DNA of 64,000 nt from an uncultured Actinomycetes bacterium (lineage in GTDB: Bacteria; Actinomycetota; Thermoleophilia; RBG-16-64-13), in NCBI GenBank assembly GCA_963706025.1, contig CAVPLM010000003.1, positions 288,001 through 352,000 of the forward strand. The letters are read 5' to 3'. The position numbers and the translations under genes are program-made. Shown piece by piece: positions 25,842 to 56,314 of this stretch; within the stretch, counting starts at the first letter, position 1, and the number at the start of each line of letters is the position of its first letter. The notes beneath the pieces are model-generated. The model did no database searches. It had not been told where the DNA came from and saw only the letters and a program-made list of their open reading frames with translations.

Positions 25842-26778
25842 ATGCGATCTTTGACCATCACCGAACTCGAAGAAGCGACCGGCGTCCCCCGTAGCACCAT
25901 CTACTTCTACGTGCGGGAGGGTCTGCTGCCCACGGCGCAGAAAGCGGCGGCGAGCCGGGCCATCTACGCGGAGTCACACGTCGATCTGCTCAAGGAGATC
26001 GCCCGGCTGAAAGCTGAAGGGTGGCCCCTGCGGATCATCAAGGAGCGATTGGCGCCTCAAGTCGCATCGGTCCGCGCTCTCGACGTCGACTTGGTGGCCG
26101 AACAGGCCGAACAGACTCGGCAGTCGATCCTGGTGGCCGCGGCCCGCCTTTTTGCGCGCAAAGGGTACAAACGCACCCGCGTCGCCGATATCATCAAGGA
26201 GGTCGGCGTCACGCCGCCGGTCTTCTACAGCCACTTCCCCTCCAAGAGGGAACTCTTCGTGGAATCCTTCGGGGTCTTCGTGGGTTGGATGCGTGGGTTC
26301 GTCGAACCTCAACTTGACGCCGAACCCGACGCCGCCGCCCGGGACTTGCGGCGAGTACACGGTTACTTCGGCGTGCAGGCCTTGAGTCCCGATCTGATGT
26401 CCCTGGTACGTTCCGAGGCCCTCCACGAAGACGGCGATATTCGCAAGGTGGTGGAGAGGTCTTACAAGGACATGACCGAGGGCACCCTCGGCGATTTGGT
26501 CCGGCTTCGGGAAGAGCGGGGAACGATACTGCCTGCGGCGGACGAACTCGTCGCTTTCGGGTTGCTGGGTGGAGTGGAGAACATCGTGATGCGGGCCTCG
26601 TGGGACGAGCGCTACTCTAACGCGTGACGTCTTGTGGACGACTCTCTGCATGTTCCTCGCCGTCGAAGCGCTCTACACCGGTCGTTTGGATCTCGGGCAC
26701 GAGCTTGCAGGATACGCTGAGCTGGTCGACCGGTTGGCGACGGCTGCCCCGCCGGTGCCGCCCGCGGCACTCGCCTAG
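25842..26778 (+). CDS. MerR-HTH/TetR fusion regulator, with a frameshift near 26625
   Basis: N-terminal LTITELEEATGVPRSTIYFYVREGLL, then TetR AARLFARKGY..FYSHFPSKREL; an alternative frame continues to TAG at 26778. Confidence 0.85.
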
Positions 26779-26785
26779 GCTCCGA

Positions 26786-26824
26786 TTGACAATCGCCTGA
26801 TCTGACTTTAGTATTTGTAATACT
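26786..26824 (+). promoter_or_regulatory. Promoter with an overlapping palindromic operator for the EthD/Phy/CHI operon
   Basis: TTGACA (26786)-17 bp-TAGTAT; AGTATT-tgt-AATACT inverted repeat at 26810-26824. Confidence 0.65.
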
Positions 26825-26877
26825 GGGAACAAGTCCTATAGCCACAGTCCCGTAGTCACCCGCCTAGGAGGTGCTCA

Positions 26878-27669
26878 GTGCCCATCAAACTCATGGCGGC
26901 TTCCCGTCGTCGCCCCGGCCTGACTCGAGCGGAGTACTTCCGCTACCTCGAGCATTATCACGGCACCGTCGCCCGACTGGAGCGCTTCAAGATCGACCGG
27001 TACATCCAGAACCACGTGATCGACGGCGCCTTCGGAGTACTCTCCGATACCAGCCACAAGAACAAGGCCGTGGACCGCGAAGGTGTGGTCGAGCTCTACT
27101 TCAGCGAGTTCCGGGACATGCTCGACACCCTTGAGCCCCAGGGGGTGGAGCAATCGCGGGCCAACCAGGACGGCAAGTTCTTCGCCGACGAGCCGACGAA
27201 CATCATCGTCATGGCGGAAGAAGTGGAGTTGCCGGTGTCGAATCCCCGGCCCAAGTTCAACCCGGGATTGGGAGAATCCGGTTGCGGCGCGGTCAAGGTC
27301 CTGCACTACATCATGCGCAAGCCTGAGGTATTCCCCAACGACTACCACAAGCTCTGGCGCCAGGCGCACGACGAAGCCATGGCCAAGTCCCCGTACGCCC
27401 AGGAGATGTTCCGCAAGATCGTTCTGAGCAAGCGCGCCCGGGTGAACGACAACGATGCCGCCGCCCGGGCCCACTTCCGCATGGTCGATCCGCCCGTCTA
27501 TGACCTGGTGGTGTCGGTCACCCTGGACAGCATGGAGCAGGTGGGGGCCTTCAGGCAGTACCTCGAGGCCATGCAGGAAAGCCCGCTCGACTTCGCCGAT
27601 TGGTCGGAGTCGTTCTTCCTCTACGTGCGGCCGGTGCGCATCATCGACGACGCGCCGCCGAAGGACTGA
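26878..27669 (+). CDS. Tandem EthD-domain protein
   Basis: RRRPGLTRAEYFRY..HG..RYIQNHV..GVVELYF, and a second repeat RKPEV..WRQAH. Confidence 0.82.
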   Translation: MPIKLMAASRRRPGLTRAEYFRYLEHYHGTVARLERFKIDRYIQNHVIDGAFGVLSDTSHKNKAVDREGVVELYFSEFRDMLDTLEPQGVEQSRANQDGKFFADEPTNIIVMAEEVELPVSNPRPKFNPGLGESGCGAVKVLHYIMRKPEVFPNDYHKLWRQAHDEAMAKSPYAQEMFRKIVLSKRARVNDNDAAARAHFRMVDPPVYDLVVSVTLDSMEQVGAFRQYLEAMQESPLDFADWSESFFLYVRPVRIIDDAPPKD

Positions 27670-27704: not shown

Positions 27705-28616
27705 ATGACTCAAGACAAGAACACGCCCGAGTGGAAGGCGCAGAAGACCTACACTCAGAACCGGGCCGACAGCGAGCTCAAGGCCACTCTGCCCCCGCTC
27801 ACTCCGGAGGAAGAGGCCCGGCCTTTCGCCAAGTACTACTACGAACCCCTCAAGCAGCCGGATCCCGCCCACTACGCCGCGATGGAAGTGCCCATCGACC
27901 CGGCCAGGGCCTTCGGTCCTGAAGAGCTCGATCGGATGCTCGACCCTAAGCGTCTGGAGACCCAAGAGGTCGAGGTGGGCTGGTGCAACCTCCCCAATGG
28001 CGCCGGCTTCATCGCCAACACCATCGTCTACCCCGACGTGACCGCGGAGATGATCGACTGGTGGTTCGTCTGGCACACGCTGGAAGACCTGCGCTACCGC
28101 ATCTGGTATCCCCCGCAGCACGCCGGCATCATGCTCAGCCCCATCGACCGGGCCCGCATCCTCGATCCGGACATCCCCATGCGCGAGAAGAACTGGGGCG
28201 TTACCCACTACGTGACCGAGAACTGCGACTGCGGTATGGAGAACGTCGACATCAGCTTCCGTTCGCCGCAGGACATGGGCTTCGACATGGACCGGTTCGA
28301 CAAGGTAGCGGCCACGTTCGCAGGCGGCGGTGGCTGGGCGGTCACCGTCTGCAAGTGCGACACGTCGATCACCGCGCCGGCCATCATGTGCCACATGTTC
28401 TACGAGGTGCCCGGCGGTCTGCGGCACCGCACCCGCTTCTGGATGGGCTACCGATTCACCGAGGACGGCAAGCCGGAGCTATGCCTGCCTCCTGGAGTAG
28501 CGGTCCCCGCGGATGCGGTACAGGGCTTGGCCCGGCACAACGTCAAGGAGTTCACGCGTTTCGGCGATTTCCTGCCCCGGATCTACAAGGAGTTGGGTCC
28601 CAGCCTGTACTGCTAG
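27705..28616 (+). CDS. Phloretin hydrolase / DAPG hydrolase PhlG-family C-C hydrolase
   Basis: MIDWWFVWH..LRYRIWYPPQH, HYVTE, MCH..RTRFWMG and HNVKEF (His/Glu/His/Glu metal set). Confidence 0.9.
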   Translation: MTQDKNTPEWKAQKTYTQNRADSELKATLPPLTPEEEARPFAKYYYEPLKQPDPAHYAAMEVPIDPARAFGPEELDRMLDPKRLETQEVEVGWCNLPNGAGFIANTIVYPDVTAEMIDWWFVWHTLEDLRYRIWYPPQHAGIMLSPIDRARILDPDIPMREKNWGVTHYVTENCDCGMENVDISFRSPQDMGFDMDRFDKVAATFAGGGGWAVTVCKCDTSITAPAIMCHMFYEVPGGLRHRTRFWMGYRFTEDGKPELCLPPGVAVPADAVQGLARHNVKEFTRFGDFLPRIYKELGPSLYC

Positions 28617-28733: not shown

Positions 28734-29517
28734 GTGATCAAGTCGATCGTGCTGATGAGTCTCCCGATAGACGACATCGCGGAGATGGAACGGTGGTACT
28801 ACCGAGAGCACTCCTCGGAGATCTCGCGTCGCTATGGGCCTTGGCTGGAGCGGCACGAGAGCTTCGCGGCCCTCGAGCGCCCCGGCCGATGCCCGCGAAT
28901 ACGGCTTCTACGACTGGCGTTTGACCGAGTGCTTCTGGCGCGAGGTACCGCTGCCCGGCCCCCGGGGGGCCTATTGTTTCACCCCGGCGCCGGTGTGGAA
29001 CCCCATCGTAGCCTGCGCGGTGCCGGCGCAACCCAGCGAGGATTTCCTGGGCTGGGACGGCTTCGCAACCGACCGGGCCTGCATTCGCTGGTATCAGATC
29101 TTCCGCTACCCGCTGGGCGTGCGCTTGAACGACGGGGAAGACTGGTACCTGAACGTGCATGCGCCCGAGGTGATGAAACAGCCGGGCCTGCGCCGCTTCT
29201 TCAGCTACCGAGCGGTCAAGCCCCCTGTCCCCCTGCCGGGCATGTGGCATCCGGACGCGACGCCCCCCGAAGACATGCAGTTGGTGCAGTGGGACCGGGT
29301 CACCGAGCTGTGGTACGAGAGTTTCGCAGCGTGGCGGAACGCGGTCATCAGCAACCCGCCGCAGTACACCCTGCCGGATTGGGCTACCGATCCGTTCTAT
29401 CCCGAGACCACCGACAAGTTCCCGTTCTTCAAGCCGGGGGTCGACTTCGTGAGCACCTTCTTGCTCGAGCGGCCCACCGACGAATTCAAACGCGACACCC
29501 GCTACTACCTGCCGTAG
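28734..29517 (+). CDS. Bacterial chalcone isomerase-like protein, with a frameshift near 28875
   Basis: ERWYYREH, GFYDWRLTECFW, YPLGV..GEDWY, VTELWYE and FPFFKP parallel Eubacterium ramulus CHI as recalled (RWIYKVH, GYARMQLTEHHW, FPFLKP). Confidence 0.72.
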
Positions 29518-29584: not shown

Positions 29585-30421
29585 ATGGCTGAGGCGAAGA
29601 TACGAGAACTGACCGCCGAGGAGAAGGCGAAACCCTACTCCAAGTACTACTACCGGCCGGTGGACGATCCCGACCCGGTGCTGCTCGAGCTGGTGCGGCC
29701 GGACCGACCCATGGATTCGGCCAAGGCCCTCTATCCCGAAGACATCAACCGCCTGCTCGACCCCGGCTACATGGAGGTCGAGACCGGCTGGTGCAGCCTG
29801 CCCAATGGAGCCGGCTACATCTGCGTCAACAACAAGATGCCCGGCGTCACCGTTGACATGCTCGATTGGTGGTTCGCCTGGCACTCGCTGGCCGGCATGC
29901 ACTATGGCATCTGGTATCCGCCGGGCCACTTCGGCATCTCCATCAGCGAGAAGGACCGCAAGAAGGTGCTCGACCCGACCGTTCCCATCAAAGAGAAGAT
30001 CTACGGCCGCACCGATCACGTCGTCGAAGACGTGGGCACGGGAGCCGAGGACATCTTCATCTTCTTCTGTCACCCCTCGGAGTTGGGATTTGACATGGAC
30101 CGGTTCCGTCCACCCGCCGTGGCCGCGGTCTACGGTGGCTATGGCTTGGATATGCCGCAAAACGCGCAGCCCTGGACCATCCGAGCCCCGGCCATCATGT
30201 GCCACTTCATCCGCGAGATCCCCGGCGGTGTCGAGTTCCGGACCCGGTTCTGGATGGGATACACGCTGATTGATGGCAAGCCGCTGTACATGCTGCCTTA
30301 CGGGGTGAAGGTGCCGGTCGAGGCCATCCAGGGGCTCGCGGAGCACAATGTGCGGGAGTATACGAACCTGCGCAATGTGCTTCCCGAGATCTACACGGAA
30401 CTCGGGGGGCGTATCCCCTGA
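29585..30421 (+). CDS. Second phloretin hydrolase / PhlG-family hydrolase
   Basis: MPGVTVDMLDWWFAWH, YPPGH, HVVEDVG, RTRFWMG and HNVREYTNL. Confidence 0.9.
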   Translation: MAEAKIRELTAEEKAKPYSKYYYRPVDDPDPVLLELVRPDRPMDSAKALYPEDINRLLDPGYMEVETGWCSLPNGAGYICVNNKMPGVTVDMLDWWFAWHSLAGMHYGIWYPPGHFGISISEKDRKKVLDPTVPIKEKIYGRTDHVVEDVGTGAEDIFIFFCHPSELGFDMDRFRPPAVAAVYGGYGLDMPQNAQPWTIRAPAIMCHFIREIPGGVEFRTRFWMGYTLIDGKPLYMLPYGVKVPVEAIQGLAEHNVREYTNLRNVLPEIYTELGGRIP

Positions 30422-30438: not shown

Positions 30439-31338
30439 CTACTGCAGTTCGGCCTCAAAATGGCCGGCGACGCTCGCCCGGATGTGGATCATGAGCGCCC
30501 GCGCCGCGGTCGAGACAGGGTGTTCGCGGAGATGGATGAGGTCGAGCGACCGGACGGGGCGCTCCAGCAAGGAGATGGCGACGAGCCCCTCCAGGGTCTC
30601 GGGAACAATGAGCATCTTGGGGACAAGGGCGACCCCCAGCCCTTGCCTGGCGAGAGCCTTGGTGAGTTCTACGTAGTTAGCTCGATACGGGACTCGAGGC
30701 TCAAAGCCAGCCCGCCGGCAGACGTCCATCAGCAGATTGGACATGTTCATCGAATGGCCGGGAAGCAGAATGGGTTCGTCGGCCAGACAACTCAGCGAAA
30801 CCGGCAAGCCGCTTGCCAAGCGGTGGTCACTAGGGACCACCAGAAGTATCTCCTCGGTCAGGATGCGAGTGGTCGCGGCTCGGGGGGATCCCCATGCAGT
30901 CACGATGGCGCAGTCAAGCTCCCCGTTCATGACTGCTTCCTCCAGGAGTACGTCCTCTCGCTCGATGAGATCGAGATGGACCCGGGGGTATGTCTTGATG
31001 AAGGAAGCAAGGATCGGGGCCAAGAGATGAGCGAAGACCGTCCCGGTGGACCCCAGGCTGACCTTGCTGGAGAGCGTTCCCACGTGTTCCCGGATCATTC
31101 GGGAGGCGTCGTCGGCGCGCGCGATTATGTTCCTGGCCAGGGGAAGCAAGAGCCTGCCGTCGGCCGTGCACTCGACGCGGCGACCGTACCGCTCGAAGAG
31201 CTGAGCCCCCAACTCCGTCTCCAGCCGGGCGATCTGGCGGCTGATGGCCGGCTGGGAGAGATGTACGAGCGAGGCCGCTCGGGTGAAGCTGCGGGCCTCG
31301 GCCACGGCGACGAACGATCTGAGCTGATCGAGTTCCAT
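30439..31338 (-). CDS. LysR-family regulator
   Basis: FVAVAEARSFTRAA..SQPAISRQIARLE. Confidence 0.95.
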   Translation of the reverse strand: MELDQLRSFVAVAEARSFTRAASLVHLSQPAISRQIARLETELGAQLFERYGRRVECTADGRLLLPLARNIIARADDASRMIREHVGTLSSKVSLGSTGTVFAHLLAPILASFIKTYPRVHLDLIEREDVLLEEAVMNGELDCAIVTAWGSPRAATTRILTEEILLVVPSDHRLASGLPVSLSCLADEPILLPGHSMNMSNLLMDVCRRAGFEPRVPYRANYVELTKALARQGLGVALVPKMLIVPETLEGLVAISLLERPVRSLDLIHLREHPVSTAARALMIHIRASVAGHFEAELQ

Positions 31339-31536: not shown

Positions 31537-33390
31537 GTGAGTCCTTTGCTCGGTTACATGGGAAAGCTACTGCGGGCAGACCTGACCGCCCGGACGCTCA
31601 AGGACGAACCGCTCGATCCGGAAACGGCCGGGGCCTTCATCGGCGGCTCCGGATACGCCGCCCGGATCATTAACGACGAGGTACCCGGAGACACCGATCC
31701 GTTGAGCCCAGCCAACAAGCTGGTCTTCATGACCGGTCCGGCTACCGCGACCAGCCTGCCCACCACTGCTCGCTACGAGGTCTGCACCAAGTCGCCGCTC
31801 ACCAACATGTGGCTGGACGCCAGCTCCTCCGGCTGGTGGGCACGGGATTTGAAGCTCGCGGGGTATGACGGGCTGATCGTGGAAGGCGCGGCCGATGCCC
31901 CTGTCTACCTATGGATCAAGGACGGCAAGGCAGAGATCCGGGACGCATCGGCCTTCTGGGGAATGGACTCCGACCAGACTCAAGAAGCGATCCGCGCCGA
32001 ACTCGGCGACCAGAAGATCAAGGTTGCCTGCATCGGGCCCGCCGGAGAGAAGCAGGTGCCTCTGGCGTGCGTGATGAACGACGAGCAGCGGGCCGCCGGC
32101 CGGGGCGGGGCCGGCGCGGTCATGGGTTCCAAGAACCTGAAAGCCATCGCCGTCCGCGGGAGCATGAAGGTCCCTGTGGCGGACGAGGCCCGGCTGCGCG
32201 AGATCTCCAAGGAACTGCGCGGCCGTCTGGAGCAGCACCCGGTCGTTTCCCTGTTCAAGCCCTACGGGACCGCCTGTCTCATGGAGCACGGCTGGGTCAG
32301 CGGCGACGTCCCCAACAAGAACTGGGGAAAGGGTGTGTGGCGGGAAGGCTGCGAGGTCCTCAATGGCCGCGTTATGGCCGAGACTATCCTGGTGCCGCAC
32401 GCGGCCTGCCAGGGGTGTTTCATCCGCTGCGCCCGCTGGGTGAAGATCGACGAGGGCCCGTTCGCGATGGATGGCCCGGGTCCCGAGTACGAGACTCTGG
32501 CGGCTTTCGGCACGATGCTGATGAACGACGACCTGGCGGCGGTCTGCCATGCCAACGATCTGGCCAACCGCTATGGCGTAGACACCATCTCCACCGGGTC
32601 GGCCATCGCCTTCGCCATGGAGGCCTACGAAAAGGGCGTCATCACCAAGGAAGAGGCGGGCTGCGAGCTCACGTGGGGCAATGTCGACGCCATCATGGAG
32701 ATGATCGAACAGATCGGTAACGCCCGCGGGCTCGGGGCCATCCTGGGCAAGGGCGTGAAGCGCGCGGCCGCCGAGCTGGGCCGAGGGACTGAGGACTACG
32801 CCGTCCATGTGAAAGGCATGGAGGTCCCATACCACGATCCCCGCGCTTTCTTCTCCATGGCTACGACCTATGCCACCGGACCGCGGGGGGCCTGCCACAT
32901 GCATGGGGCCTCCTTCATCATGGAGCAGGGAGCGCCCCGTCCCGATACCGGCGTTCCGCCCGAGGTCGACCGTTTCGCCAACGAAGGCAAAGGCATCCTG
33001 GCCAAGCTGGCCCAGGACAAGTATTCGGTGACCGGTTCGATGGTCATATGCGTCATGCTCTCTGATGGCATGATCTTCGCCGACCAGGCGAGCGTGCTCG
33101 AGGCTGTGACCGGCGAACCCTGGACGGTCGAGCGGGTCGCGAAGACGGGCGAACGCATCACCAACCTGCAACGCGTCTTCAGCCTGAAGTGCGGCATAAC
33201 GGGGGCAGACGACAGGCTGCCGAAGCGGCTGCTCGAGGGACCCGACGAAGGTAGTCACGCCGGGAAGGTGCCCGACATGACCGTTCTTCTGCCGGATTAC
33301 TATCGCGAGCGCGGTTGGGACGAGAACGGTCGTCCCACCCCGGCGAAACTCGAGGAGCTGGGACTGGTGGAGATAGCGGGGGAGTTCTAG
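31537..33390 (+). CDS. aor: Aldehyde:ferredoxin oxidoreductase (tungsten AOR family)
   Basis: KSPLT, AGRGGAGAVMGSKNLKA, CQGCFIRC, GPEYET, GVDTIS and RGACH. Confidence 0.93.
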   Translation: MSPLLGYMGKLLRADLTARTLKDEPLDPETAGAFIGGSGYAARIINDEVPGDTDPLSPANKLVFMTGPATATSLPTTARYEVCTKSPLTNMWLDASSSGWWARDLKLAGYDGLIVEGAADAPVYLWIKDGKAEIRDASAFWGMDSDQTQEAIRAELGDQKIKVACIGPAGEKQVPLACVMNDEQRAAGRGGAGAVMGSKNLKAIAVRGSMKVPVADEARLREISKELRGRLEQHPVVSLFKPYGTACLMEHGWVSGDVPNKNWGKGVWREGCEVLNGRVMAETILVPHAACQGCFIRCARWVKIDEGPFAMDGPGPEYETLAAFGTMLMNDDLAAVCHANDLANRYGVDTISTGSAIAFAMEAYEKGVITKEEAGCELTWGNVDAIMEMIEQIGNARGLGAILGKGVKRAAAELGRGTEDYAVHVKGMEVPYHDPRAFFSMATTYATGPRGACHMHGASFIMEQGAPRPDTGVPPEVDRFANEGKGILAKLAQDKYSVTGSMVICVMLSDGMIFADQASVLEAVTGEPWTVERVAKTGERITNLQRVFSLKCGITGADDRLPKRLLEGPDEGSHAGKVPDMTVLLPDYYRERGWDENGRPTPAKLEELGLVEIAGEF

Positions 33391-33391: not shown

Positions 33392-33673
33392 GTGCAGGTG
33401 ACCGTGAGCTTCCTGGGGTCGCTGCGCGATCAGCTCGGGAAGCAGTCATTGGTGGTCGAGCTCCCGGCCGCGGCGACATACCGAGATCTTCTGGACAGCA
33501 TCGCCCCCACGATGCAGGAGAAGCTGGCCGCTTGGGCGTGGGATGCCGAGAGACGATCGTTCCCTGGTCAGATGATGGTCTCGCGGAACCTGTCGGTCGA
33601 CGTACGAGACGAGAGCACGATCCTGGCCGACGGCGACGAGATCATCGTCGTCCCGCCGCTGGCCGGAGGGTGA
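33392..33673 (+). CDS. MoaD/ThiS-family protein
   Basis: Ubiquitin-like size with C-terminal PPLAGG; directly after the AOR gene. Confidence 0.9.
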   Translation: MQVTVSFLGSLRDQLGKQSLVVELPAAATYRDLLDSIAPTMQEKLAAWAWDAERRSFPGQMMVSRNLSVDVRDESTILADGDEIIVVPPLAGG

Positions 33674-33696: not shown

Positions 33697-34395
33697 CTAC
33701 GGAAGGAACCGGCTCGGATCCGTCAGGAAGTCGCGGTACAGGCGGAAGTGATCCGTCGCTTCGTACTCCGTTTCCCGGATGCCCGTGTCTGCGAGAAGGA
33801 AGATCTGGCTGTCGGGCAGCGCCATGAGAATCGGGGAGTGTGTCGCGATCACGAACTGAGCGTGGCTGGAAACGCGATGGGCCGCGAGGATCCTCAGGAG
33901 CTCCAGTTGGCTCGCCGGGGAGAGGGCACTCTCGGGTTCGTCCAGGAAGTACAGCCCCGGCACACTGTAGCGGCCGGCCAGGTAGGCCAGGATCCCCTCT
34001 CCATGGGACCTCGCCGTAAGGTCGGCACCGCCGTGGTATTTGGCTTGACCAGGATCGAGCCGCGTCACGTCGTCGAGGAACTCCGCCCACTCGCGGAAGG
34101 CCTCCGCGCTGAACAGCCCCCCGGTGACGCTGCCCTCGACGAGGGTGACCCGCACGTGGTGACTCAAGGCCGCCGCCGAGAGTTCGTCGCTAGCCAGATA
34201 GCGCCTGGGCTGACCCCACATGGGCAGTCCGCAAAGCTGCGCCACCGCCTGGATGAGCGTGGACTTCCCCGATCCGTTCTCCCCCACCAAGAAGCTCACC
34301 GAGCGGTTGAAGTCCAGCCTCTGGCGCCCCTGCAGGGGCGCCACGTTGAAGGGGTACCTTCCCCGATCCGGGAACTCGTCGCCCCGGATCTCCAC
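33697..34395 (-). CDS. Stand-alone ABC-type (AAA_21-like) ATPase
   Basis: GENGSGKST, SHGE, LDEPESALS and IATHSP. Confidence 0.88.
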   Translation of the reverse strand: MEIRGDEFPDRGRYPFNVAPLQGRQRLDFNRSVSFLVGENGSGKSTLIQAVAQLCGLPMWGQPRRYLASDELSAAALSHHVRVTLVEGSVTGGLFSAEAFREWAEFLDDVTRLDPGQAKYHGGADLTARSHGEGILAYLAGRYSVPGLYFLDEPESALSPASQLELLRILAAHRVSSHAQFVIATHSPILMALPDSQIFLLADTGIRETEYEATDHFRLYRDFLTDPSRFLP

Positions 34396-42937: not shown

Positions 42938-42941
42938 GCCC

Positions 42942-47803: not shown

Positions 47804-49262
47804 TGAAAGACCTTAGAGACTGGATCGCGGCTTGCGAGAACGAAGGCGAGCTCAAGCGGATCACCAAGGAGGTCGACTGGGAGCTGGAGCTCGGCCACGT
47901 GGCCACCCTTAACGAACGGGCGGGGGGACCGGCTCTCCTCTTCGAGAAGGTCAAGGACTACGGCATCCCGGTACTCAGCAGCACGGTGACCACGGCCAAG
48001 AAGATGGCCATCACCTGCGGGAAGCCCGCGCACTACACGCTCTGCGACGTCTCTCGGGAATGGAAGAACGTTATCCAGCAGGGCAGGCTGGTGGAGCCGG
48101 TGGAGGTCAAGGACGACATCCCGGTGATGTACGAGGTCCTGGAAGGTGACGACGTCAACGTCTTCGACCTTCCCTCCCGCGCCTCTACCCGCAGGACGGC
48201 GGCCGCTACCTTGGCCTCGCCTGCAACTACATCACCCAGGACCCGGAGACCGGCTGGACCAACCTGGGGACCTACCGCGGCATGGTCATGGACGAGAAGA
48301 CCATCGGCGCGAACATGATGGGCAAGGCCAAGCACGGACGGATCCACGTCGACAAATACTCCAAGCTGGGGACCAGGATGCCGGCGGCCGTCTATTGCGG
48401 CTGCGATATGTTCCATCTTGTGGTCGGCTCGACCATGGTGCCGGCGCAGCAAGACGAGTACGGTGTCATCGGCGCAGTCATGGGTCGGCCGGTCGAGGTC
48501 TTCACCAGCGACCTGACCGGGCTGAAGCTTCCGGCTCATGCCGAGATCATTCTCGAGGGCGAAGTGGAGCTCGATCCCGACAAGTTCCGGCCCGAGGGCC
48601 CCCTGGGTGAGTACGTGGGCTTCTACGCTGCCAGCGGTGAGGGCCCGAAACCCTGGCTTGAGATCAAGCGGATCTACAAGCGGAAGGATCCCATCTTCGT
48701 CATCAGCACCGTCGGCCGGCCGGTGGGCGACGCGCACATGATCAACGCCGTCGGTCGTATGGCCTATCTGTGGGCCGACCTGGAGATGATGAAAGTGCCG
48801 GGTGTCCGGTCGGTCTACTGCCCGCCCGAAGCCGCGGGCCGATTCTGGGCCATAGTGTCGGCGAAGATCACCCATCCCGCCGGTGCCGAGAGGGTCGCCG
48901 AGGCGGTGTCTTGCAGTCCCACAGGGCACTTCGGCATCAAGGGGATCATCGTCGTCGACGAGGATGTCCCGGCCGACGATATGGCAGGCGTCTGGTGGTC
49001 TCTGGCCTGCCGCTACGATCCAGGTAAGGACACCCAGATCATCAACAAGATGCGCCCCACCCCGTTCGACCCCGCCCTCCCTGCTGGGGCGAAGGCCATA
49101 GGCTCCAAGATCCTGATCGATGCCACCACGCCGGTGGAATGGGAGAAGAAACCTCGCCTGGTCGAACTGGACGAGGCCACTTCGAGGGCGGTGTTGGACA
49201 AGTGGCAGGAATACGGGTTCGAACAGCCGTACAAGCTGTCAGGAGATGCTCTGCCGAGGTAG
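47803..49262 (+). CDS. UbiD-family (de)carboxylase, phenylphosphate carboxylase beta subunit-like; one frameshift
   Basis: DLRDWI..ELKRITKEVDWELEL..GPALLFEKVKDY, TNLGTYRG, PEGPLGEYVG, IVVDEDV and KILIDAT. Confidence 0.88.
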
Positions 49263-49486
49263 CCGTCAGCGGGGCAGAGGTGCCGAACGAAAGCACGACA
49301 CGAGGAGGAAAAGGGCGTAGTGTGATAAGTGGCGGTGGGAGCTACTCAGGGAGACCCGGCCCGCGTGTGTGGCGGCGCAGGGCAGGCGGTCGGGGGAGGT
49401 GTGGTTGAGAGAAGATGCTGGGTTACGAGGTAGGGGTTTTGTCGGTTGACGGAAGAGATAGTAGTGCATGAAAACGGGGGTTACAC

Positions 49487-50965
49487 ATGTCAGCTCAAGA
49501 CAAGAATCACTGCGAAGACCCGGATCTCATCGACGGCCGGACCGTCAGCCGTCGGGAGTTCCTGAAGCTGGCCGGCATCGCCGGGGCGACGATCGGGGTG
49601 GGCGCCGGCCTGGGCGGGCTCCTGACGGCCTGCGGCGAGGAAGAGACCACCACTACCACGGCTGCAGCTACCACCACCACGGCCGGAGCTACCAGCACCA
49701 CGGCGGGCGCCACGACCACGGTGAGCACCGGTGCCGAGGCCGGGCGGGAGATCAAGGTGGGCTTTGTCGACCCGATCACGGGCGCTATCGCCGGATTCGG
49801 GATCCCCGGCAAGTGGTGCGTGGAGCGCTGGAGTGAAGCGGTGAAAGACGGGCTGGTGTGCGGCGACGGCTTGAACCACCCCGTCAAGATCGAGCTCCAG
49901 GATAGCCAGTCCGATAGCAACCGGGCCGCGCAGGTGGCCGGTGACCTCATTACCAATGGTAAGGCCGACTTCATGATGGCGGCTGCCTCCCCGGACACCG
50001 TGAACCCGGTAGCCGACCAGAGCGAGGCCTTGGGATGTCCCTGTCTCACCGTCGACGCTCCCATGGAGCCCTACTTCTATGGCCGGCAGGGAGCCAACCC
50101 GGATCCGAACTACGTCTTCAAGTGGACCTACCACCTGTTCTGGGGCTTCACCGAGATGGAGAAGGTCTACTGGGACACCTGGAACGGAACGGCGACCAAC
50201 AAGAAGGTCGCGATCATGTTCCCCAACGACGTCGACGGGAACGCCTATCGGCAATACTTCACCCAGGAGAAGTGCGCCGCGAACGGCTTCACCACCGTCG
50301 ACCCGGGGCCCTTCCAGCCCATGACCGACGACTTCACCACTCAGATCTCGCTCTTCAAGAAAGAGGGATGCGAGATCGTTTCGGCCTGGTTCATCCCGCC
50401 GGAGATGGCCACCTTCTGGACACAGTCCCTACAACAGGGCTTCAACCCGATAATCTTCCAGGCCGTGAAAGCCTCGCTGTTCCCCACTGCCATAGAAGCC
50501 ATAGGAGGGACCTCGGGCGACGGCATAGTTGGTCCCTGCTGGTTCCATCCGACCTACACCTACGTGTCTTCACTCACGGGTGAGACCTGCCAGCAGTTGT
50601 GCGACGACTTTGAGACTCGGACCAACCAGCAGTGGACGCAGCCGATCATGCACTATGCGGCCTTCGAGTGGGTCGTCGACGTTCTCACGCGCACCACGAA
50701 CGTGGACGACAAGGAAGAGATCATGAAGCGGGTGACCGAGACCAAGGCGGACTTCGTCTGCGGTCCGGTCGACTTCACGGTCCCGATCTCTGCCGACTTC
50801 GGCGCCAAGCGGCACGTCGCCAACGTCTACGTGACCCCGTTGTGGGCCGGTCAGTGGCAGCTTGACCCGGGTGGCAAATGGCAGTACAAGCTCGTGGTGG
50901 TCACCAACTCGGCCGCTCCGGACCTCAAGGTTGAGGGCCCGCTCCAGCCGATCAAGTACTCTTAG
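49487..50965 (+). CDS. Tat-exported lipoprotein ABC substrate-binding protein (branched-chain amino acid/aromatic type)
   Basis: SRREFLK Tat motif, LTAC lipobox, Thr-rich linker, IKVGFVDPITG and DSQSDSNRAAQVA. Confidence 0.9.
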   Translation: MSAQDKNHCEDPDLIDGRTVSRREFLKLAGIAGATIGVGAGLGGLLTACGEEETTTTTAAATTTTAGATSTTAGATTTVSTGAEAGREIKVGFVDPITGAIAGFGIPGKWCVERWSEAVKDGLVCGDGLNHPVKIELQDSQSDSNRAAQVAGDLITNGKADFMMAAASPDTVNPVADQSEALGCPCLTVDAPMEPYFYGRQGANPDPNYVFKWTYHLFWGFTEMEKVYWDTWNGTATNKKVAIMFPNDVDGNAYRQYFTQEKCAANGFTTVDPGPFQPMTDDFTTQISLFKKEGCEIVSAWFIPPEMATFWTQSLQQGFNPIIFQAVKASLFPTAIEAIGGTSGDGIVGPCWFHPTYTYVSSLTGETCQQLCDDFETRTNQQWTQPIMHYAAFEWVVDVLTRTTNVDDKEEIMKRVTETKADFVCGPVDFTVPISADFGAKRHVANVYVTPLWAGQWQLDPGGKWQYKLVVVTNSAAPDLKVEGPLQPIKYS

Positions 50966-51145
50966 ACCAACTCGTGCCTCTGGAACCTGCCCACCCGCGA
51001 AAACAGGCAGCAGGCTCAGGATGAAGTGAGACCGTGGCGCGTGCCCAGCACGCGCCACGGTCTCATTCCGGTGGATCGCGGTCCGCGACAAAACAGATGG
51101 CGCCGCACACGGCGACCGGTGAACCCGAAGAGCGAGCCCGAGAAA

Positions 51146-52046
51146 ATGACCCCAGCTTATGACCTCGTTTTCGTGGGCAATGCGTCCATCGACCAGATCC
51201 ATACCTTTGAAGGACCGATCCAGACCCTCTTCGGCGGGGGTGTGGTCTTCAGCTCCATGGCGGCGGTGTGGTCCGGCAAACGGATCGCAGTGGTCACAAG
51301 GATGGCGGAACGCGAGGCCCACTTGCTCGACCCCTTGCGTGAGGCCGGGATCGACGTATACGTCACCTATGCTCCGCAGACTACGCGCCACAGGGCGTTC
51401 CACCTCAGCGGAGATGTCGACCAGCGGCAAGTCGTCCTGGAGGAGAGCGCCGGAGCCTTCACGGGTGGAAGACCTGCCCCCAATGCGGCCTACTTTCTTG
51501 CACCTGGCCGGTCTTACCGACCAGGAGTTCTCCCTTGCTTTCATGAAGAGCGTGAACGAGCTGGGCCATACCTTCTCCGTGGACTTCCAGGGGCTGGTCC
51601 GTCAGGCAGACCTGCACACGGGTGAGGTGTCATACGCCAACGTTCCCGACAAGGTGGAGATCACCAACCTAGCCGACAAACTGAAGCTCGATGCGCTGGA
51701 GGCCAAGTTTCTGACCGGTACGGCCAACCCCGAACTGGCAGCCGCGCGGATAGAAGAATGGGGCGCCTCAGAAATAATGGTGACGAGGACGGAGGGAGCT
51801 TTGGTTCGCTGTCGCGGCGAGTCGTATTTTGAGCCCTTTTCGAACAGAAGCGTCGAAGGTAGAACGGGACGGGGTGACACCACGTTTGGTGCCTACCTTG
51901 CGAGCCGCCTGGACAGCAGTGTCGGCTACTCGCTGCGACTCGCCGCATCTGTGGCCTCGATCAAGATGGAGACTCAGGGTCCGTTCAGAGGTACCTTCGA
52001 AGAGATAGCGGCGAGGATGAGCACCATTCATGGGCGAGGCCGATGA
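51146..52046 (+). CDS. PfkB-family carbohydrate kinase, one frameshift
   Basis: GGGVVFS near the N-terminus and the C-terminal RTGRGDT motif. Confidence 0.82.
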
Positions 52047-52170
52047 CTACGTCCAGATCACGACCATCCGATTGACTCACATGTTCGGTATCGTATGATG
52101 GAGCGAAGGAGTGTTGCCTGGGTCATCGTCCAGGTGCTGTGCTGAGGACCAACAGGACAAGGAGTGAGAA

Positions 52171-53262
52171 ATGAGCAGGATGTCAGTCGCTGCCGTCGTG
52201 CGCGAGCCTTGCGCTCCGTACACTCTCGAGTCGGTCGAACTGGACGATCTACGGCCAGATGAGGTCTACGTCCGTATCGAGGCGGCGGGGGTCTGCCATA
52301 CCGACGCGAACATGCAGGTGATGGTCCCGATGCCGGCCGTCGTCGGTCACGAGGGAGTCGGGAGTCGTGGAGGAAGTCGGCTCGGGCGTGTACGATGTGA
52401 AGCCCGGCGACAGGGTCATCATCTCCTGGCCGGCCTGCGGTGTGTGTTTCAATTGCCTCACGGGCAAGCGATACATCTGCGAGAATGCGTTTCCGCTGCT
52501 GTTCAGCGGGCGCCGTTTGGACGGCTCACCAACGATCAAGCTAGGTGGCGAGTGGATCTCGGGCGCCTGGTTCCAGCAGTCTTCCTTTGCCACCTACGCC
52601 ATAGCCTCCGCCGACTCGCTGGTCCGGGTGGAGGACGATGTGCCGCCGGAGATCCTTGCCGCTCTGCCCTGCGGGGCGATGACCGGCGCCGGCGGGATAC
52701 TCAGTGCCCTGCGGGTCGGCCCCCGGGACGAGGTGCTCATCCTCGGCGCCGGCGGGGTCGGGCAGGCCGCGGTGATGGCCGCACACATGGCCGGAGCTTA
52801 TCCGATCATTGCGGTGGCGCGGAATCCCAAGCGCCTGGAGCTCGCCCTCGAACTTGGGGCGACCCATGTGGTGAACGCGGCCTGCGAAGACATCGCTGCG
52901 CGGGTGCAGGAGATAAGCCCCGGCGGGGTGCGCTTCGCCTTCGACAGCTCCGGGGCGGTCACCTGTTGGAAAGCGGCCGCACTGAGTCTCCGTGCCGGTG
53001 GTACGTTCGGGGTCTGCGCTGCCGCCGAGGAGGAGACCCTTGGCGGGAGTCCTCACTTCTTCTTGTCGAAGGGGGCCCGTATTCAGTTCATCATGGGCGG
53101 TTCCGTGGTTCCTCGGGTCTTCTTGCCGAAGCTCATCCAATGGTACAAGCAGGGACGCTTTCCCGTTGACAAGTTGGTCCAGACCTTCCCCTTCTCGGAG
53201 ATAAACGAGGCCTTCGCGGCCTCACACGAGGGCCGGGCGGTCAAACCGGTGCTGCTGATGCC
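52171..53262 (+). CDS. Zn-dependent (aryl-)alcohol dehydrogenase; one frameshift, C-terminus abuts the IS
   Basis: GVCHTD, VVGHEG, CGVCFNC, QSSFATY, LPCG..TGAG, GAGGVG and GRFPVDKL..KPVL. Confidence 0.88.
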
Positions 53263-54247
53263 ATTCCACGCCACTACGCGTAGTAGTCGACCAAGGCCCG
53301 GCTGGGACGACCCAGTTGGTAGTTGAGGCTGATGCAGGCGGCCAGGCACAAGAAAGCGCTGCAAGATGCGCTCTTTGAGGCCCGCAAGGGTGCGGGCGCC
53401 GTGGCGTTCCAGGGTGAGGATGTCCTTGCAGGTGCCGAAGATGGATTCGATCCGTTGGCGAAGCGGAGCAAGGTGAGGGCCTTCTCCCGGCTCGTCTTTG
53501 CGCTTGGGCCGGACCAGCGGTGGCCTCGAAGCTCTTTGACGGCTGAGGCGAACTCCTCGCCCGCATAGCCCTTGTCGGCAAAGGAGGATCTCCCCTCCCT
53601 CGCGCCGGCAGCTCCCAAGGAGTTCGAGGCCCACCTCCCGTTCATCCCGCTTGGGCGAGGCGAACGATAGCGCCCGGGGAGTGCCGTCCGAGGCGAAGAT
53701 GGCGTGCAGGCGCACCCCCCAGAAGTAGCGGGAGTGACTGCGGCGCAGTAGCCGTAGTCGCAGAGGTCGGAAAGAGCGGAGCGAAGCACCGTCTCCCGGC
53801 TTCTGGCGCACTCGACCGGGGTGGAGTCGATAAGCAGGAGATCATCGTAGAAACCCGGGCTTTGCTCGGCAAAAGATGAGAAGGAGCCACTCAAGGAGCG
53901 GGGAGCAAGACGGCGCCGGCGCTTGAAGTAGCCGGCCTGGCCGGGGACGACAGGGAAACAGGTGGCCAAGAGACTTTCCGGGCCCGCTCGAAGGAAGCGC
54001 CGGTCAGAGGGGATGCCCATGATGGCCTGCGCGACGGCAGAGGGTGACGATCTCGGCATCGGTGGTGCGCCGGCGGGCATTGCCGCGTCTTCTCTGGCAA
54101 AAGATCATCGGCTGTGCAATAAACGAAGGTGCAGAGGGTGTCGAGGTCGGCGTGCATCGTGGCCTCCTGGTCAGACGGTGATGCTGACACCGTCGGACTT
54201 CGGCTTCTCTGCCTCGAATCCCTTCTGCACCGGCATTTTCGTGGAAT
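53263..54247 (-). mobile_element. IS982-family insertion sequence; transposase at about 53274-54157 is frameshifted
   Basis: MHADLDTLC..DDLL, IDSTPVEC, YGYC..YFWG..LH, ADKGY, RQRIES and ERHGART; 8-bp inverted ends ATTCCACG/CGTGGAAT. Confidence 0.85.
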
Positions 54248-54694
54248 CAATCACTAGGGGTCGGCCCTGCGCCGAACGCCTGGTGACGCGCCAATGCTCT
54301 TGTGGTCGCCGGAGCTCTCTCTGGCTCCCCTTCCTCGAAAGCTTCGCAGAGGATGTCGATCAGGTGATCGATCTCCTCCTCAGTCATCAACGCGGCTCCA
54401 GCCCGCTCTCGCTCACTCGACAGGCCCCAGCGCATCGGCGCGTTCTGGCGCTGGGCCGCGACCTCCATTATTGGTATACTCGTTTCATTTGACAGACAGC
54501 GCCAGGTCCCTCGCCGGCACCCGGGCGATGGTCGCCGTGTGAAGAAGCGGCGTGACGCGCCCTAGAAACGGGAGAGGTCCAGTTTTGAAGAGCAACAAGG
54601 AGGGAATTCACAGTCCTAGTCGAGTTGGACCGCACGGCTTTGCATCGGAAGCTGATCTGGCACGAGATGCCGATCTTAGTAAGGAGAGTCGATC

Positions 54695-55501
54695 ATGACA
54701 GATGTCGTCACTGATCCCTATTCGGGGCTGCAGATGGTGGAGCTGAGCCATTTGTGGGGCCATGGCGTGCCGTCCTACCCCGGAGATGCCGACGTACGCA
54801 TGGTGCGGGCGGTCAAGTTCGCCCAGCACGGCGTTATGGCGCACCGGATCACCACCGTGATGCACACCGGGACCCACATGAACGCCCCTCTGCACCTGAT
54901 CCAGAAGGGCGCCGATCTGGCGGCGATCCCCGTCGATCGCTATTTCGGCAACGGCGTGGTGCTGGACATCCCCAAGAAGAACTGGGAAGTGATCACGGCT
55001 GACGACCTCAAAGCAGCCAAGCCCGGGATCCAGTCCGGCGACATCGTTGTCATCGTTACGGGTTGGTATCACAAGTACTCCGACGGACTGGAGTACTTCG
55101 GCGAGGCGCCGGGGCTCTCGAAAGACGCGGCCGAGTATCTGGTGGAGATGGACGCCAAGATGGTCGCCATCGACACCCCCCACGTCGATCATCCTTTGGC
55201 CACCTCCATGGGCCCCCATCGCGGCGGGCCGCAGATGAAACGTCTGGCCGGCGAGTACACCAAGGCCACCGGTCTCGATCCCAAGAAAGAGCACGGCGAG
55301 TGGTACGCCGCGCACAAGACGCTCCTCGCGGCCGGGATCCCCACCATCGAGCAGGTGGGCGGGGACGCCGATCTGGTCAAAGGCAGGCGCGCGACTCTGG
55401 CTGCCACGCCCTGGAAGTTCGAACACGGCGACGCCTGCCCGGTCAGATTGATCGCGATGTTCGATCCCACCGGTAAGGCCCGGATCGAGCCTGGCAACTG
55501 A
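54695..55501 (+). CDS. Cyclase-family (kynurenine formamidase-like) metallohydrolase 1
   Basis: ELSH, HTGTHMNAPLH, DTPHVDHP, AHKTLL and IEQVGGD. Confidence 0.88.
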   Translation: MTDVVTDPYSGLQMVELSHLWGHGVPSYPGDADVRMVRAVKFAQHGVMAHRITTVMHTGTHMNAPLHLIQKGADLAAIPVDRYFGNGVVLDIPKKNWEVITADDLKAAKPGIQSGDIVVIVTGWYHKYSDGLEYFGEAPGLSKDAAEYLVEMDAKMVAIDTPHVDHPLATSMGPHRGGPQMKRLAGEYTKATGLDPKKEHGEWYAAHKTLLAAGIPTIEQVGGDADLVKGRRATLAATPWKFEHGDACPVRLIAMFDPTGKARIEPGN

Positions 55502-55530
55502 CTATCCGCCGAGCCGAAAGGACGAACCAT

Positions 55531-56314
55531 ATGAGTCTCAAGATCTACAACCTCAGCCATACCTTCACGCAGTTCATGCCCGAGTGGCCCTCGACTCCGA
55601 GCGTGGACGTAGACGTGGTGAAGTTCCATGCCAAAGACGGCGTATACCAGACGCAGTGGGAAGGCATCATGCACCGCTGCACCCACATGGACGCCCCCAT
55701 CCACGTGACCGAATGTACCCCCAGCATCAACGACTACCCGTTGTGGCGCATGTTCGGCACCGGCGTCGCGGTCTCCATCCCCAAAGAGAAGTGGGGGATC
55801 ATCACCCCCGAGGATCTCGAGAATGCCCGCCCGAAGATCCAAGAGGGCGACATCGTCATGATCAACACCGGCTTCCATCGCAAGTGGGGCGATACCGACG
55901 AGTACTTCGCCTACGGTTGTGGGATCTACCAAGAGGGCGCCCAGTGGCTGGTGGACAAGAAAGTCAAGCTGGTCGGCTACGGCTGCCAGGCGAACGACCA
56001 CCCCATCGCCACCAAGCTCGTCAATCACGGCCTTGGCCCCACGCATCCCCACCTGATCGAAGAGTGGAAAGAGGAGTTCGGGCAGGACCCCATCGAGGAC
56101 TTCCCCAGGCTGGGAATCGGCGCACAAGACCCTGATGGTCAAGGGCGGGATTCCCGGGATCGAGAACGTCGGCGGCGACTTGGACGAGGTGACGGGCAAG
56201 CGCTGCACCTTCTTGGTCCTGCCTTGGCGCTGGCCCGGCGGGGACGGCTGCATCGTGCGCGTCCTTGCCATCATCGACCCGGACCAGGAGTTCCGCTTCG
56301 AAGCTGGGCTGTAA
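55531..56314 (+). CDS. Cyclase-family metallohydrolase 2, with a frameshift near 56110
   Basis: NLSH, HRCTHMDAPIH and NDHP; IENVGGDL..GDGCIVRV in an alternative frame. Confidence 0.85.

Follow-up and report, generated by a model that had tools for sequence, protein, structure and literature searches.

If genes for the opening of flavonoids and genes for the activation of phenolic compounds lie side by side, do they encode one anaerobic pathway or two? This question is raised by a stretch of 64 kb (the window, positions 288001-352000 of contig C3 in the source assembly G000), where an initial annotation had proposed an undescribed anaerobic polyphenol pathway at 25842-56314. G000 is a metagenome-assembled genome of 3.66 Mb in 30 contigs, with a G+C content of about 64%, a completeness of 92.3% and a contamination of 7.3%; its relatives are numbered from G001 onward. 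We found a real, conserved island of two separable modules, which would be the catabolic island of an uncultured soil/sediment anaerobe of the Gaiellales/Thermoleophilia type. Module A would open flavonoids to phloroglucinol, and module B would activate a phenolic compound by the logic known from phenol and aniline degradation. This is the best explanation overall, and we rate its chances as slightly better than even. Module A is of a known kind, the cleavage by chalcone isomerase (CHI) and phloretin hydrolase (Phy), whereas module B is a new variation on phenol/aniline-type activation.

The island was recognized by comparison with the DNA of 40 relatives. The whole block is collinear in the same-genus genomes G003 (C1:527.5-558.2 kb) and G001 (C15:127-161 kb), with 75-87% DNA identity, and is largely kept in G019, G015, G011 and G024, all of which belong to other genera. 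Since the block is collinear in relatives, the grouping of its genes is more than chance. Its flanks are conserved too, with an M6 peptidase on one side and a 693-759-aa protein plus an M24 peptidase on the other. Module A consists of the MerR/TetR regulator, the EthD protein, hydrolase 1, the CHI-like protein, hydrolase 2, LysR, an aldehyde:ferredoxin oxidoreductase (AOR), MoaD and an alcohol dehydrogenase (ADH); module B extends from an AAA-type ATPase through a PfkB-like gene (33.7-52 kb). The nesting of the modules was counted over 24 other genomes of the family. Module B occurs in seven of them (G001, G002, G003, G011, G015, G019 and G024) and all seven hold module A, so that both modules co-occur in eight genomes from five genera, although the carriers are kin and such counts are not independent. 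Module A stands without module B in G004, G007, G009 and G020, and only fragments of it were found in G016 (EthD and PhlG1) and G013 (AOR and ADH). The ADH adjoins the AOR in G004, G020, G013 and G011. Because the ADH sits beside the AOR where module A occurs alone, module B seems, in the genus of the window, to have been inserted between AOR-MoaD and the ADH. The initial annotation had allowed that the sub-operons could be independent; this is borne out in part, as module A stands alone in four genomes. Module B was accompanied by module A in seven of seven kin genomes.

Scans with Pfam and NCBIfam, which took in the open reading frames (ORFs) at 18.8-64 kb of the window, together with tblastn searches using orthologs of relatives, gave the following genes. 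CoA stands for coenzyme A, FAD for flavin adenine dinucleotide, bis-MGD for bis(molybdopterin guanine dinucleotide) and IS for insertion sequence.

25842-26736, plus strand: regulator of module A with MerR-type helix-turn-helix (HTH) and TetR_N domains (Pfam TetR_N 72.8 bits, MerR_1 49.9 bits); frame change near 26620, the G003 ortholog matching in two frames by tblastn
26878-27669, plus strand: EthD-domain protein, 263 aa, intact (Pfam EthD 45 bits; 94% identity to the G003 ortholog; Atlas neighbours are EthD clusters)
27780-28616, plus strand: phloretin-hydrolase/PhlG-like C-C hydrolase 1 (PF18089, 228.7 bits)
28734-29517, plus strand: bacterial chalcone-isomerase-like protein; frame change near 28870 (G003 ortholog 260 aa)
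29585-30421, plus strand: phloretin-hydrolase/PhlG-like C-C hydrolase 2 (PF18089, 247.2 bits)
30439-31338, minus strand: LysR regulator (Pfam)
31537-33390, plus strand: tungsten-type AOR (Pfam; best PDB matches)
33392-33673, plus strand: MoaD/ThiS-like small protein coupled to the AOR (Pfam, NCBIfam)
33697-34395, minus strand: AAA_21/ABC-like ATPase, last gene of the minus-strand operon (Pfam)
34412-36712, minus strand: ADP-forming (NDP-forming) acyl-CoA synthetase, fused alpha/beta, 766 aa (Pfam ATP-grasp_5, Succ_CoA_lig and CoA_binding_2; NCBIfam)
36709-38385, minus strand: PpsA-like protein, 558 aa (PF00391 at residues 477-548)
38404-40149, minus strand: PpsB-like PPDK_N ATP-binding domain fused to an N-terminal HAD, 581 aa (Pfam)
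40146-41033, minus strand: IclR regulator of the PcaR/PobR type (Pfam; TIGR02431 E 7e-39, below its cut-off)
41251-42937, plus strand: AMP-forming aryl-CoA ligase, in three to four frames here (569 aa in G002)
42942-43800, plus strand: CoxM/XdhB-like FAD subunit, frame-broken (293 aa in G002)
43823-46273, plus strand: [2Fe-2S]-[4Fe-4S]-bis-MGD fusion Mo/W enzyme ('FerMo'), frame-broken (802-854 aa in relatives, 820 aa in G002)
46351-47088, plus strand: stand-alone HAD-like protein, frame-broken (245 aa in relatives including G002)
47113-47800, plus strand: conserved protein of about 231 aa between HAD and UbiD, frame-broken (no Pfam or NCBIfam match)
47800-49262, plus strand: PpcB-like UbiD (de)carboxylase; one frame change near 48177 (486 aa in G002)
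49487-50965, plus strand: Peripla_BP_6 solute-binding protein, intact (Pfam, tblastn)
51146-52028, plus strand: PfkB-like kinase; frame change at 51463 (293 aa in G002)
52171-53263, plus strand: Zn-dependent ADH, one frame change; part of module A in other genera
53263-54260, minus strand: IS-like repeat between ADH and cyclases (weak IS982 match, NCBIfam 33 bits, cut-off 130)
54695-55501, plus strand: cyclase-family (PF04199) metal hydrolase 1 (Pfam)
55531-56314, plus strand: cyclase-family protein 2; frame change near 56090

Thus, every family named by the initial annotation is present at 25842-56314, including its flavonoid ring-opening homologs: the gene between both hydrolases, which lacks a Pfam match in the window, is bacterial chalcone-isomerase-like, and the hydrolases themselves are Phy-like. 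The two CoA ligases that had been counted exist as well, but they belong to separate classes, one ADP-forming and one AMP-forming, and the conserved 231-aa gene and the IS-like repeat had been overlooked. The plus-strand run from the regulator to hydrolase 2 is followed by the divergent LysR gene and the AOR-MoaD pair, then by a minus-strand operon of five genes, and from 41.2 kb onward by a second plus-strand run from the CoA ligase to the cyclases. The five minus-strand genes, as well as the trio of HAD, 231-aa protein and UbiD, overlap by four bases or abut. Copies of the IS-like repeat were found elsewhere in G000 (C23:23350-24328, C3:8420-9061 and C1:6186-7143) and in other genomes; between ADH and cyclase it is missing in G003.

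Eleven of the approximately 25 genes (the TetR regulator, the CHI-like protein, the CoA ligase, the FAD subunit, the Mo enzyme, the stand-alone HAD, the 231-aa protein, UbiD, the PfkB-like kinase, the ADH and cyclase 2) are split across at least two frames in the window, and the remaining genes are intact. The breaks could mean that the stretch at 41-53 kb is a true pseudogene graveyard, in which module B decays and the pathway is non-functional in this strain. Besides the number of broken genes, an IS-like element close by and an 8.3-kb DNA alignment with the same-genus G002 speak for such decay; the alignment contains 100 gaps, many of them single-base, in non-homopolymer context and in both coding and non-coding sequence. 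However, contigs from four other public runs (two studies), aligned to 41200-53400, carry indels relative to the window at the sites of frame change (42534, 42686, 42783, 43166, 43226, 43254, 43285, 44674 and 51463; 12 indels listed and 56 further). One short-read contig is identical to the window over 643 bases save one base, which lies at 51463 in the PfkB-like gene. In G002, the CoA ligase, FAD subunit, Mo enzyme, HAD, UbiD and PfkB-like genes are all open. The pieces of the broken genes retain 80-94% protein identity to relatives, the same as their intact neighbours, and the dearth of long ORFs recurs across the genome, with less than 45% cover by long ORFs of high third-position G+C (GC3) in 60 of the 686 ten-kb windows of G000. 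Relatives show scattered breaks likewise, in other genes. Because contigs of other runs are corrected at the same sites, relatives are intact and similar patches recur across the genome, the frameshifts are, on these comparisons, consensus errors; real decay appears very unlikely.

Some patches of G000 nearly lack long high-GC3 ORFs altogether, for example C4:35001-50000, C13:15001-30000 and C3:450001-460000. They probably represent further poor consensus, and genes there will therefore look broken too. The ORF of 513 aa at 43157-44698, which runs from the FAD-subunit gene into the following gene, illustrates the consequence: the 'chimeric Mo enzyme' described earlier was in this form an artefact, while the true gene in relatives is still a chimera, joining a [2Fe-2S] domain of the xanthine dehydrogenase (XDH) type to a catalytic part of the dimethyl sulfoxide (DMSO) reductase type. 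Apparent 'chimeric' or split genes of this assembly need checking against relatives before they are interpreted.

What would module A do? Both hydrolases match DAPG_hydrolase (PF18089), and among solved structures the phloretin hydrolase 5xe5 is similar to hydrolase 2 (E 1.1e-35). Against the PhlG equivalog NF047887 they scored 91 and 107 bits, short of its cut-off of 600. The CHI-like copy of the window has no Pfam match because it is frameshifted. Its intact ortholog in G003, in contrast, matches PF18232 (Chalcone_N) with 31.6 bits, above the cut-off of 25; homologs carry the same domain, and the Atlas pointed the gene to Chalcone_N clusters (score 0.93, 197 shared features). The profile of the CHI-like family matches the CHI of Eubacterium ramulus with an E of 1.8e-15, and in the profile alignment the catalytic His of that enzyme (His33; chain position 34 in 4d06), of which an H33A mutant exists as a structure entry, pairs with the family-invariant His26. 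A weak AlphaFold model of the CHI-like protein (pLDDT 54, pTM 0.60) predicts a two-domain ferredoxin-like fold as in 3zph/4c9s; with this model as query, ranks 1-14 of a Foldseek search were all E. ramulus CHI (E about 1e-11, TM 0.58-0.60). The EthD protein and a wrong-frame ORF of 283 aa gave nothing useful in a sequence search of the PDB, and no relationship of EthD to the CHI-like family was detected (hhalign probability 0.2). The AOR was considered as a BamB-like protein and rejected, since its best PDB matches mark it as a classical AOR (E 7e-139, versus 6.6e-60 for BamB 4z3w). The AOR-MoaD pairing recurs at two other places.

From these families and their distribution we infer that module A, which covers 25.8-33.7 kb and includes the ADH at 52.2-53.3 kb and perhaps the cyclases, opens flavonoid-type acylphloroglucinols. 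The CHI-like enzyme would open the flavonoid C ring, the two phloretin-hydrolase-like enzymes would cleave the acyl-phloroglucinol C-C bond, and AOR and ADH would interconvert the acid, aldehyde and alcohol forms of the side product. That module A is a flavonoid or acylphloroglucinol cleavage system feeding phloroglucinol seems quite probable to us. The closest known counterpart is the flavanone/dihydrochalcone cleavage of E. ramulus and Flavonifractor plautii by CHI, enoate reductase and Phy, with which the island shares the two-domain fold and aligned catalytic His of its CHI-like protein, hydrolases of the Phy/PhlG family and a degradation cluster for the product phloroglucinol in the same genome. 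The differences are that the CHI-like protein is only about 21% identical to CHI, that the island has two hydrolase paralogs and no enoate reductase, that EthD, AOR/MoaD and a Zn-ADH are added, and that the host is an uncultured Gaiellales-type actinobacterium instead of a gut Firmicute. Elsewhere in the genome, at G000:C11:31739-37309, two genes of the old yellow enzyme (OYE)/enoate-reductase type (661 and 483 aa) are found no more than 5 kb from a third phloretin-hydrolase-like gene; they may supply the reductase step of flavanone cleavage otherwise missing from the island.

For the degradation of phloroglucinol, we found six adjacent genes at G000:C17:20.9-28.9 kb, namely BKACE, SDR, 3HCDH, a cyclase, an AthL-like gene (large subunit of pyrogallol hydroxytransferase) and a BthL-like FeS partner. 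At family level they include the clustered PGR-DPGC-HOHD-TAL series (locus L135, ORFs 8-11), and the cluster is conserved in G001 and G003 with 84-86% DNA identity. A phloroglucinol cluster is present in 12 of 12 relatives with module A (G001-G004, G007, G009, G011, G015, G016, G019, G020 and G024), and in G004 (C9) and G020 (C25) AthL-like genes adjoin module A itself. According to PMC10470551, PGR, DPGC, HOHD and TAL form the characterized phloroglucinol pathway of Clostridium scatologenes, with chalcone isomerase, enoate reductase and phloretin hydrolase placed upstream of phloroglucinol, and some Mycobacterium clusters also hold phloretin hydrolase. Like this pathway and the pyrogallol-phloroglucinol transhydroxylase of Pelobacter acidigallici, G000 has the four families and an AthL/BthL-like pair side by side. 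Unlike them, its cluster sits outside the island on another contig, the transhydroxylase-like genes are expanded to at least eight AthL-like paralogs, and the two cyclases of the island share only 29% identity with that of C17, the DPGC candidate.

The initial annotation had expected a funnel into benzoyl-CoA ring reduction, and this expectation was not supported. In G000 the best match to BcrB reached 25.9 bits (cut-off 486) and the best match to BamA/Oah 73.9 bits (cut-off 464), and no BamA at E ≤ 1e-30 was found in the 13 genomes with module A or B, G000 included. As these genomes are 65-100% complete, BamA is 'not found' rather than 'absent'. Above its cut-off, BamA occurs in seven of the 40 relatives (G005, G006, G008, G012, G018, G022 and G023), and in G010 and G021 the gene is split. 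The island is missing from all nine genomes, of which G008 and G021 have only scattered non-collinear matches. Within the family, genomes with BamA and genomes with the island and the phloroglucinol cluster are nearly exclusive, and only G008 and G023 combine BamA with a phloroglucinol-like cluster. NCBIfam did not separate BamB from the AOR paralogs of G000, where approximately 17 AOR-family genes (19 matches) exist, several of them paired with a MoaD-like gene. Since BcrB and BamA were not found and a complete pathway lies on C17, the ring-cleavage route would, by gene content, be that of phloroglucinol and not of benzoyl-CoA. Thus, of the downstream ring reduction sought earlier, BcrB and BamA could not be recovered, but a different ring-cleaving route is present, and the phloroglucinol released by module A would enter the canonical PGR/DPGC/HOHD/TAL cluster of contig C17.

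Module B was compared with the phenol pathway of Thauera aromatica and Geobacter (PpsABC, PpcABCD, ligase, HcrABC) and with the ani cluster of Desulfatiglans anilini. The Pps-like kinase pair proposed before was recovered as a PPDK_N protein and a protein with a phospho-histidine swivel. In the PpsA-like protein this swivel is C-terminal, with the motif GGILSHSAI, and the N-terminal part has no assigned family. No curated Pps model matched the pair; its best NCBIfam matches were to generic phosphoenolpyruvate (PEP)-synthase, Rph or PigC models, and each fell far short of the respective cut-off. The HAD part of the PpsB-like protein is 49% identical to the stand-alone HAD. The UbiD appears PpcB-like, as had been proposed: it scored 457.6 bits on TIGR02724, just short of the cut-off of 468.95, aligned over 2-471 of 472 positions. 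It is the single UbiD of the cluster, which lacks the second (alpha) subunit of PpcABCD; G000 holds five UbiD paralogs in total. The UbiX that had been asked for is encoded at G000:C3:46494-47036 (TIGR00421, 243 bits). The CoA ligase is nearest to the benzoate-CoA ligase family (TIGR02262, 326.6 bits, cut-off 375). The 231-aa protein matches 100 representative clusters among 1.84 billion proteins. Its model (pLDDT 75.7) gave no Foldseek match on the PDB at E ≤ 0.001, and a wide VIA-align search reached a best Z of 5.0, which is within the tool's stated noise range and does not show a new fold. The Peripla_BP_6 binding protein is one of many copies in G000.

With these systems, module B shares the split PEP-synthase-like kinase with its phospho-His domain, the PpcB-like UbiD and its HAD-type partner, an aryl-CoA ligase, a Mo enzyme that comes with modules for FAD and FeS, and a UbiX elsewhere in the genome. 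It differs in that PpsB is fused to a HAD domain, that its HAD lacks the second Asp of motif I, that there is an extra 231-aa protein, that the catalytic part of the Mo enzyme is of the bis-MGD (acetylene-hydratase-like) and not the XDH type, that an ADP-forming acyl-CoA synthetase lies within the kinase operon, and that a benzoyl-CoA pathway was not found in G000. With the ani cluster it also has in common the single UbiD. In that cluster, the closest described analogue of module B, a kinase pair is combined with just one Ppc-beta, an acyl-CoA synthetase and a reductase resembling Hcr (PMC7500099).

By analogy, the split kinase, made up of the His-swivel and ATP-binding proteins, would phosphorylate a phenolic compound, which a UbiD dependent on prenylated flavin mononucleotide (prFMN) would then carboxylate together with HAD and the 231-aa protein. 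The AMP-forming ligase would make the aryl-CoA, and the FAD subunit with the [2Fe-2S]-[4Fe-4S]-bis-MGD hybrid would perform a redox step on the thioester, for which the removal of a ring substituent is the likeliest candidate. Finally, the ADP-forming acyl-CoA synthetase would free the acid and regain ATP, and the product would bypass the benzoyl-CoA pathway. The presence of this synthetase suggests that the thioester is a transient handle whose energy is recovered, which would fit a genome without a benzoyl-CoA pathway. Whether module B follows Pps/Ppc-type logic we consider evenly balanced.

A further member of module B is FerMo. Residues 133-810 match acetylene hydratase 2e7z from Pelobacter acetylenicus, the best solved relative (E 2.6e-84), and residues ~20-116 match the small subunits of the XDH family over the first [2Fe-2S] motif only (small-subunit positions ~5-105); at the stretch expected for the second [2Fe-2S] motif, the alignment contains no Cys pair. 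The catalytic part has the Pfam domains Molybdopterin and Molydop_binding, that is, it is of the DMSO-reductase type and not an XDH-type subunit (Ald_Xan_dh_C / MoCoBD). The partner FAD subunit scored 235.9 bits as XdhB and 140 bits as HcrB (TIGR03195, cut-off 404), and it lacks the HcrB-type insertion, which in HcrB binds an extra [4Fe-4S]. We therefore rejected FerMo as an Hcr homolog. It was likewise rejected as an acetylene hydratase. Although the [4Fe-4S] cysteines and the metal-ligand Cys are retained, the catalytic Asp (Asp13) is replaced by Cys137 in G002 and by C, P or A across the family, and acetylene hydratase has neither the XDH-type [2Fe-2S] domain nor an FAD partner. These two electron-transfer parts imply that FerMo would catalyse redox chemistry rather than hydration.

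FerMo belongs to a widespread family. Its best 120 database matches are proteins of about 800 aa with 52-90% identity and generic product names only; most are recorded as Fer2 + Molybdopterin + Molydop_binding, but for 15 the Fer2 domain is not recorded. Those with a named source come from Chloroflexi, Thermincola, Burkholderiales, Xanthobacteraceae and Desulfobacterales metagenome-assembled genomes. A metagenome scan yielded 76 loci, and neighbours were counted over the 30 loci of at least 9 kb: a homolog of the FAD subunit was found in 28, an AMP-forming CoA ligase in 23, a UbiD in 10, a HAD in three and kinase parts in two to three, but a module A gene (EthD, PhlG or CHI-like) in none. Pfam annotation of 11 long loci showed carboxylate transporters, one to four CoA ligases and UbiDs. 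In locus L104, from a distant lineage, the order is HAD, a protein labelled unk227, UbiD, ligase, FAD subunit and FerMo. The conserved core is the ligase, the FAD subunit and the fusion enzyme; because FerMo is paired with these partners, its substrate may be a CoA thioester, and we lean towards the view that it acts on aryl- or acyl-CoA. That the step is a dehydroxylation is a conjecture that we consider doubtful.

A bolder proposal is that FAD subunit and fusion enzyme form a new hybrid Mo/W class, with an electron module of the XDH type on an active site of the DMSO-reductase type, that reductively removes ring substituents from aryl-CoAs. In these actinobacteria, which lack a recognized BamA, it would act together with an ADP-forming synthetase as a thioester-coupled electron sink returning ATP. 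Candidate substrates would be 3-hydroxybenzoyl-, gentisyl-, protocatechuyl-, salicylyl- or aminobenzoyl-CoA. To our knowledge, removal activities on these aryl-CoAs have been known for decades, but not the genes. We regard this proposal as unlikely; if true, it would account for the disposal of B-ring phenolics by polyphenol fermenters. The catechol dehydroxylases of gut actinobacteria, compared by description only, are similar in being bis-MGD enzymes of the DMSO-reductase family from Actinomycetota that remove phenolic hydroxyls in anaerobic polyphenol metabolism (PMC7028382; 10.1101/2025.01.17.632430). They act on free catechols and are not known to be fused to a [2Fe-2S] domain or to have an FAD subunit and a CoA ligase as partners. 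Within the terms and the collection covered, we found no characterization or description of the fusion enzyme in the literature, where 'acetylene hydratase-like' genes are merely mentioned on Chloroflexi scaffolds; on aryl-CoA only the D. anilini work proved relevant, for Gaiellales with phenylphosphate nothing was found, and for Gaiellales with anoxic polyphenol only work that is unrelated, as judged from its listing.

Several observations weigh against the catabolic island as proposed here. Module A lacks an enoate reductase within the island, with about 11 OYE genes (15 matches) elsewhere in G000, and it occurs without module B in four genomes, among them G007, which is 100% complete and of the same genus as the B-carrying G024. 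HAD phosphatases have a D-x-D motif, but both HADs of the island read D-x-G, and neither HAD nor the small ORFs matched curated Ppc gamma/delta models at E ≤ 0.001. The Ppc of Thauera has two UbiD subunits, whereas the cluster has one. In L104, the 22 kb around the carboxylase, ligase and Mo genes contain no kinase. Of the 11 annotated FerMo loci, five additionally hold a classical Mo enzyme of the XDH type, so FerMo is not a simple replacement for Hcr. The fate of a dehydroxylated product is unexplained without a benzoyl-CoA pathway. A chemical link between the modules is missing as well, because the known B-ring products of flavonoids are phenylpropionates or phenylacetates, which have no obvious need of phosphorylation and carboxylation. 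Finally, the phloroglucinol cluster lies on a different contig of a metagenome-assembled genome with 7.3% contamination, and none of the RNA sequencing runs matched the words of the window (the best DNA run reached 0.30, and no run reached half).

Could the modules then simply be neighbours, with module A acting on flavonoids or acylphloroglucinols, module B on an independent phenolic or aromatic acid, and no flow of metabolites between them? This carries a real but lesser chance. It would account for the genomes with all or parts of module A alone, for the position of the ADH beside the AOR in such genomes, which makes module B look inserted in the genus of the window, for the separate regulators (MerR/TetR, LysR and IclR) and for the FerMo/ligase/UbiD core that occurs in other phyla with none of the 30 loci holding a module A gene. 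Yet seven of seven relatives with module B also have module A, kin though they are, and the order is maintained across five genera. Another possibility would turn module B towards trihydroxybenzenes: the Mo enzyme would hydroxylate an aryl-CoA with water, its electrons travelling through [4Fe-4S], [2Fe-2S] and FAD to NAD(P)+, the ADP-forming synthetase would free the acid, UbiD would decarboxylate it, and transhydroxylases would isomerize the product to phloroglucinol. Such a scheme would suit the only ring-cleavage route found, the many AthL-like and UbiD paralogs of G000, and an FAD subunit that is far more XdhB-like than HcrB-like and lacks the HcrB insertion, since XDH-like wiring suits an oxidative hydroxylase. 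But PpcB, to which the UbiD comes closest, is a carboxylating enzyme, there is little sense in spending ATP on a kinase pair in a decarboxylative route, and we found no precedent in the literature for bis-MGD ring hydroxylation of an aryl-CoA; we consider the scheme rather improbable.

The island might also be biosynthetic and build an acylphloroglucinol or polyketide-like compound instead of degrading one. PhlG, the cyclase family and EthD-like folds are found in polyketide pathways too, polyketide cyclases appeared at weak Foldseek ranks, and the cyclase family includes DpsY, according to PMC10470551. However, no polyketide synthase, acyl carrier protein or PhlD-type gene was present among the ORFs scanned, the island co-occurs with the phloroglucinol degradation cluster, and a solute-binding protein and regulators of catabolic type are present, which makes biosynthesis hardly credible.

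The DNA around the island holds further gene groups. On the minus strand at 12069-17567 lies what looks like a module of the electron-bifurcation type, with an HdrA-like flavoprotein (777 aa, Fer4_20 + Pyr_redox_2), an MvhD/FlpD-like protein, two ferredoxin-like genes and likely frame breaks at 13754-14863. Directly upstream of the island, at 21735-25425, additional frame errors are suggested by a 150-aa MFS fragment and by an EamA gene in whose 412-aa ORF the domain is confined to the C-terminus; in their place G003 has an intact MFS gene and an SDR. On the other side, a 693-aa protein without a Pfam match is encoded on the minus strand at 56649-58730 and is conserved in G003 as an ORF of 759 aa at the same flank. 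It is followed at 59002-61877 (minus strand) by DsrE-like, DsrC-like, DUF1641 and Pyr_redox_2 genes in a row, which may form a sulfur-relay or sulfide:quinone-reductase-like module.

The persistence of polyphenols under anoxic conditions (the 'enzyme latch') is a live question for carbon storage in wetlands and sediments. The Mo enzyme is the more general lead, as its family is widespread and almost always accompanied by the FAD subunit and usually by an aryl-CoA ligase; if aryl-CoAs are substrates of FerMo, a number of orphan reactions in the anaerobic metabolism of aromatics would become directly testable. As for the island itself, it suggests that an uncultured family of actinobacteria specializes in polyphenols. 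A single genome, G000, combines a CHI/Phy-type island with a full phloroglucinol pathway, at least eight transhydroxylase-like genes, approximately 17 AOR genes and approximately 11 OYE genes. Judged by this gene content, the lineage seems to be specialized in polyphenols and to degrade them by way of phloroglucinol.

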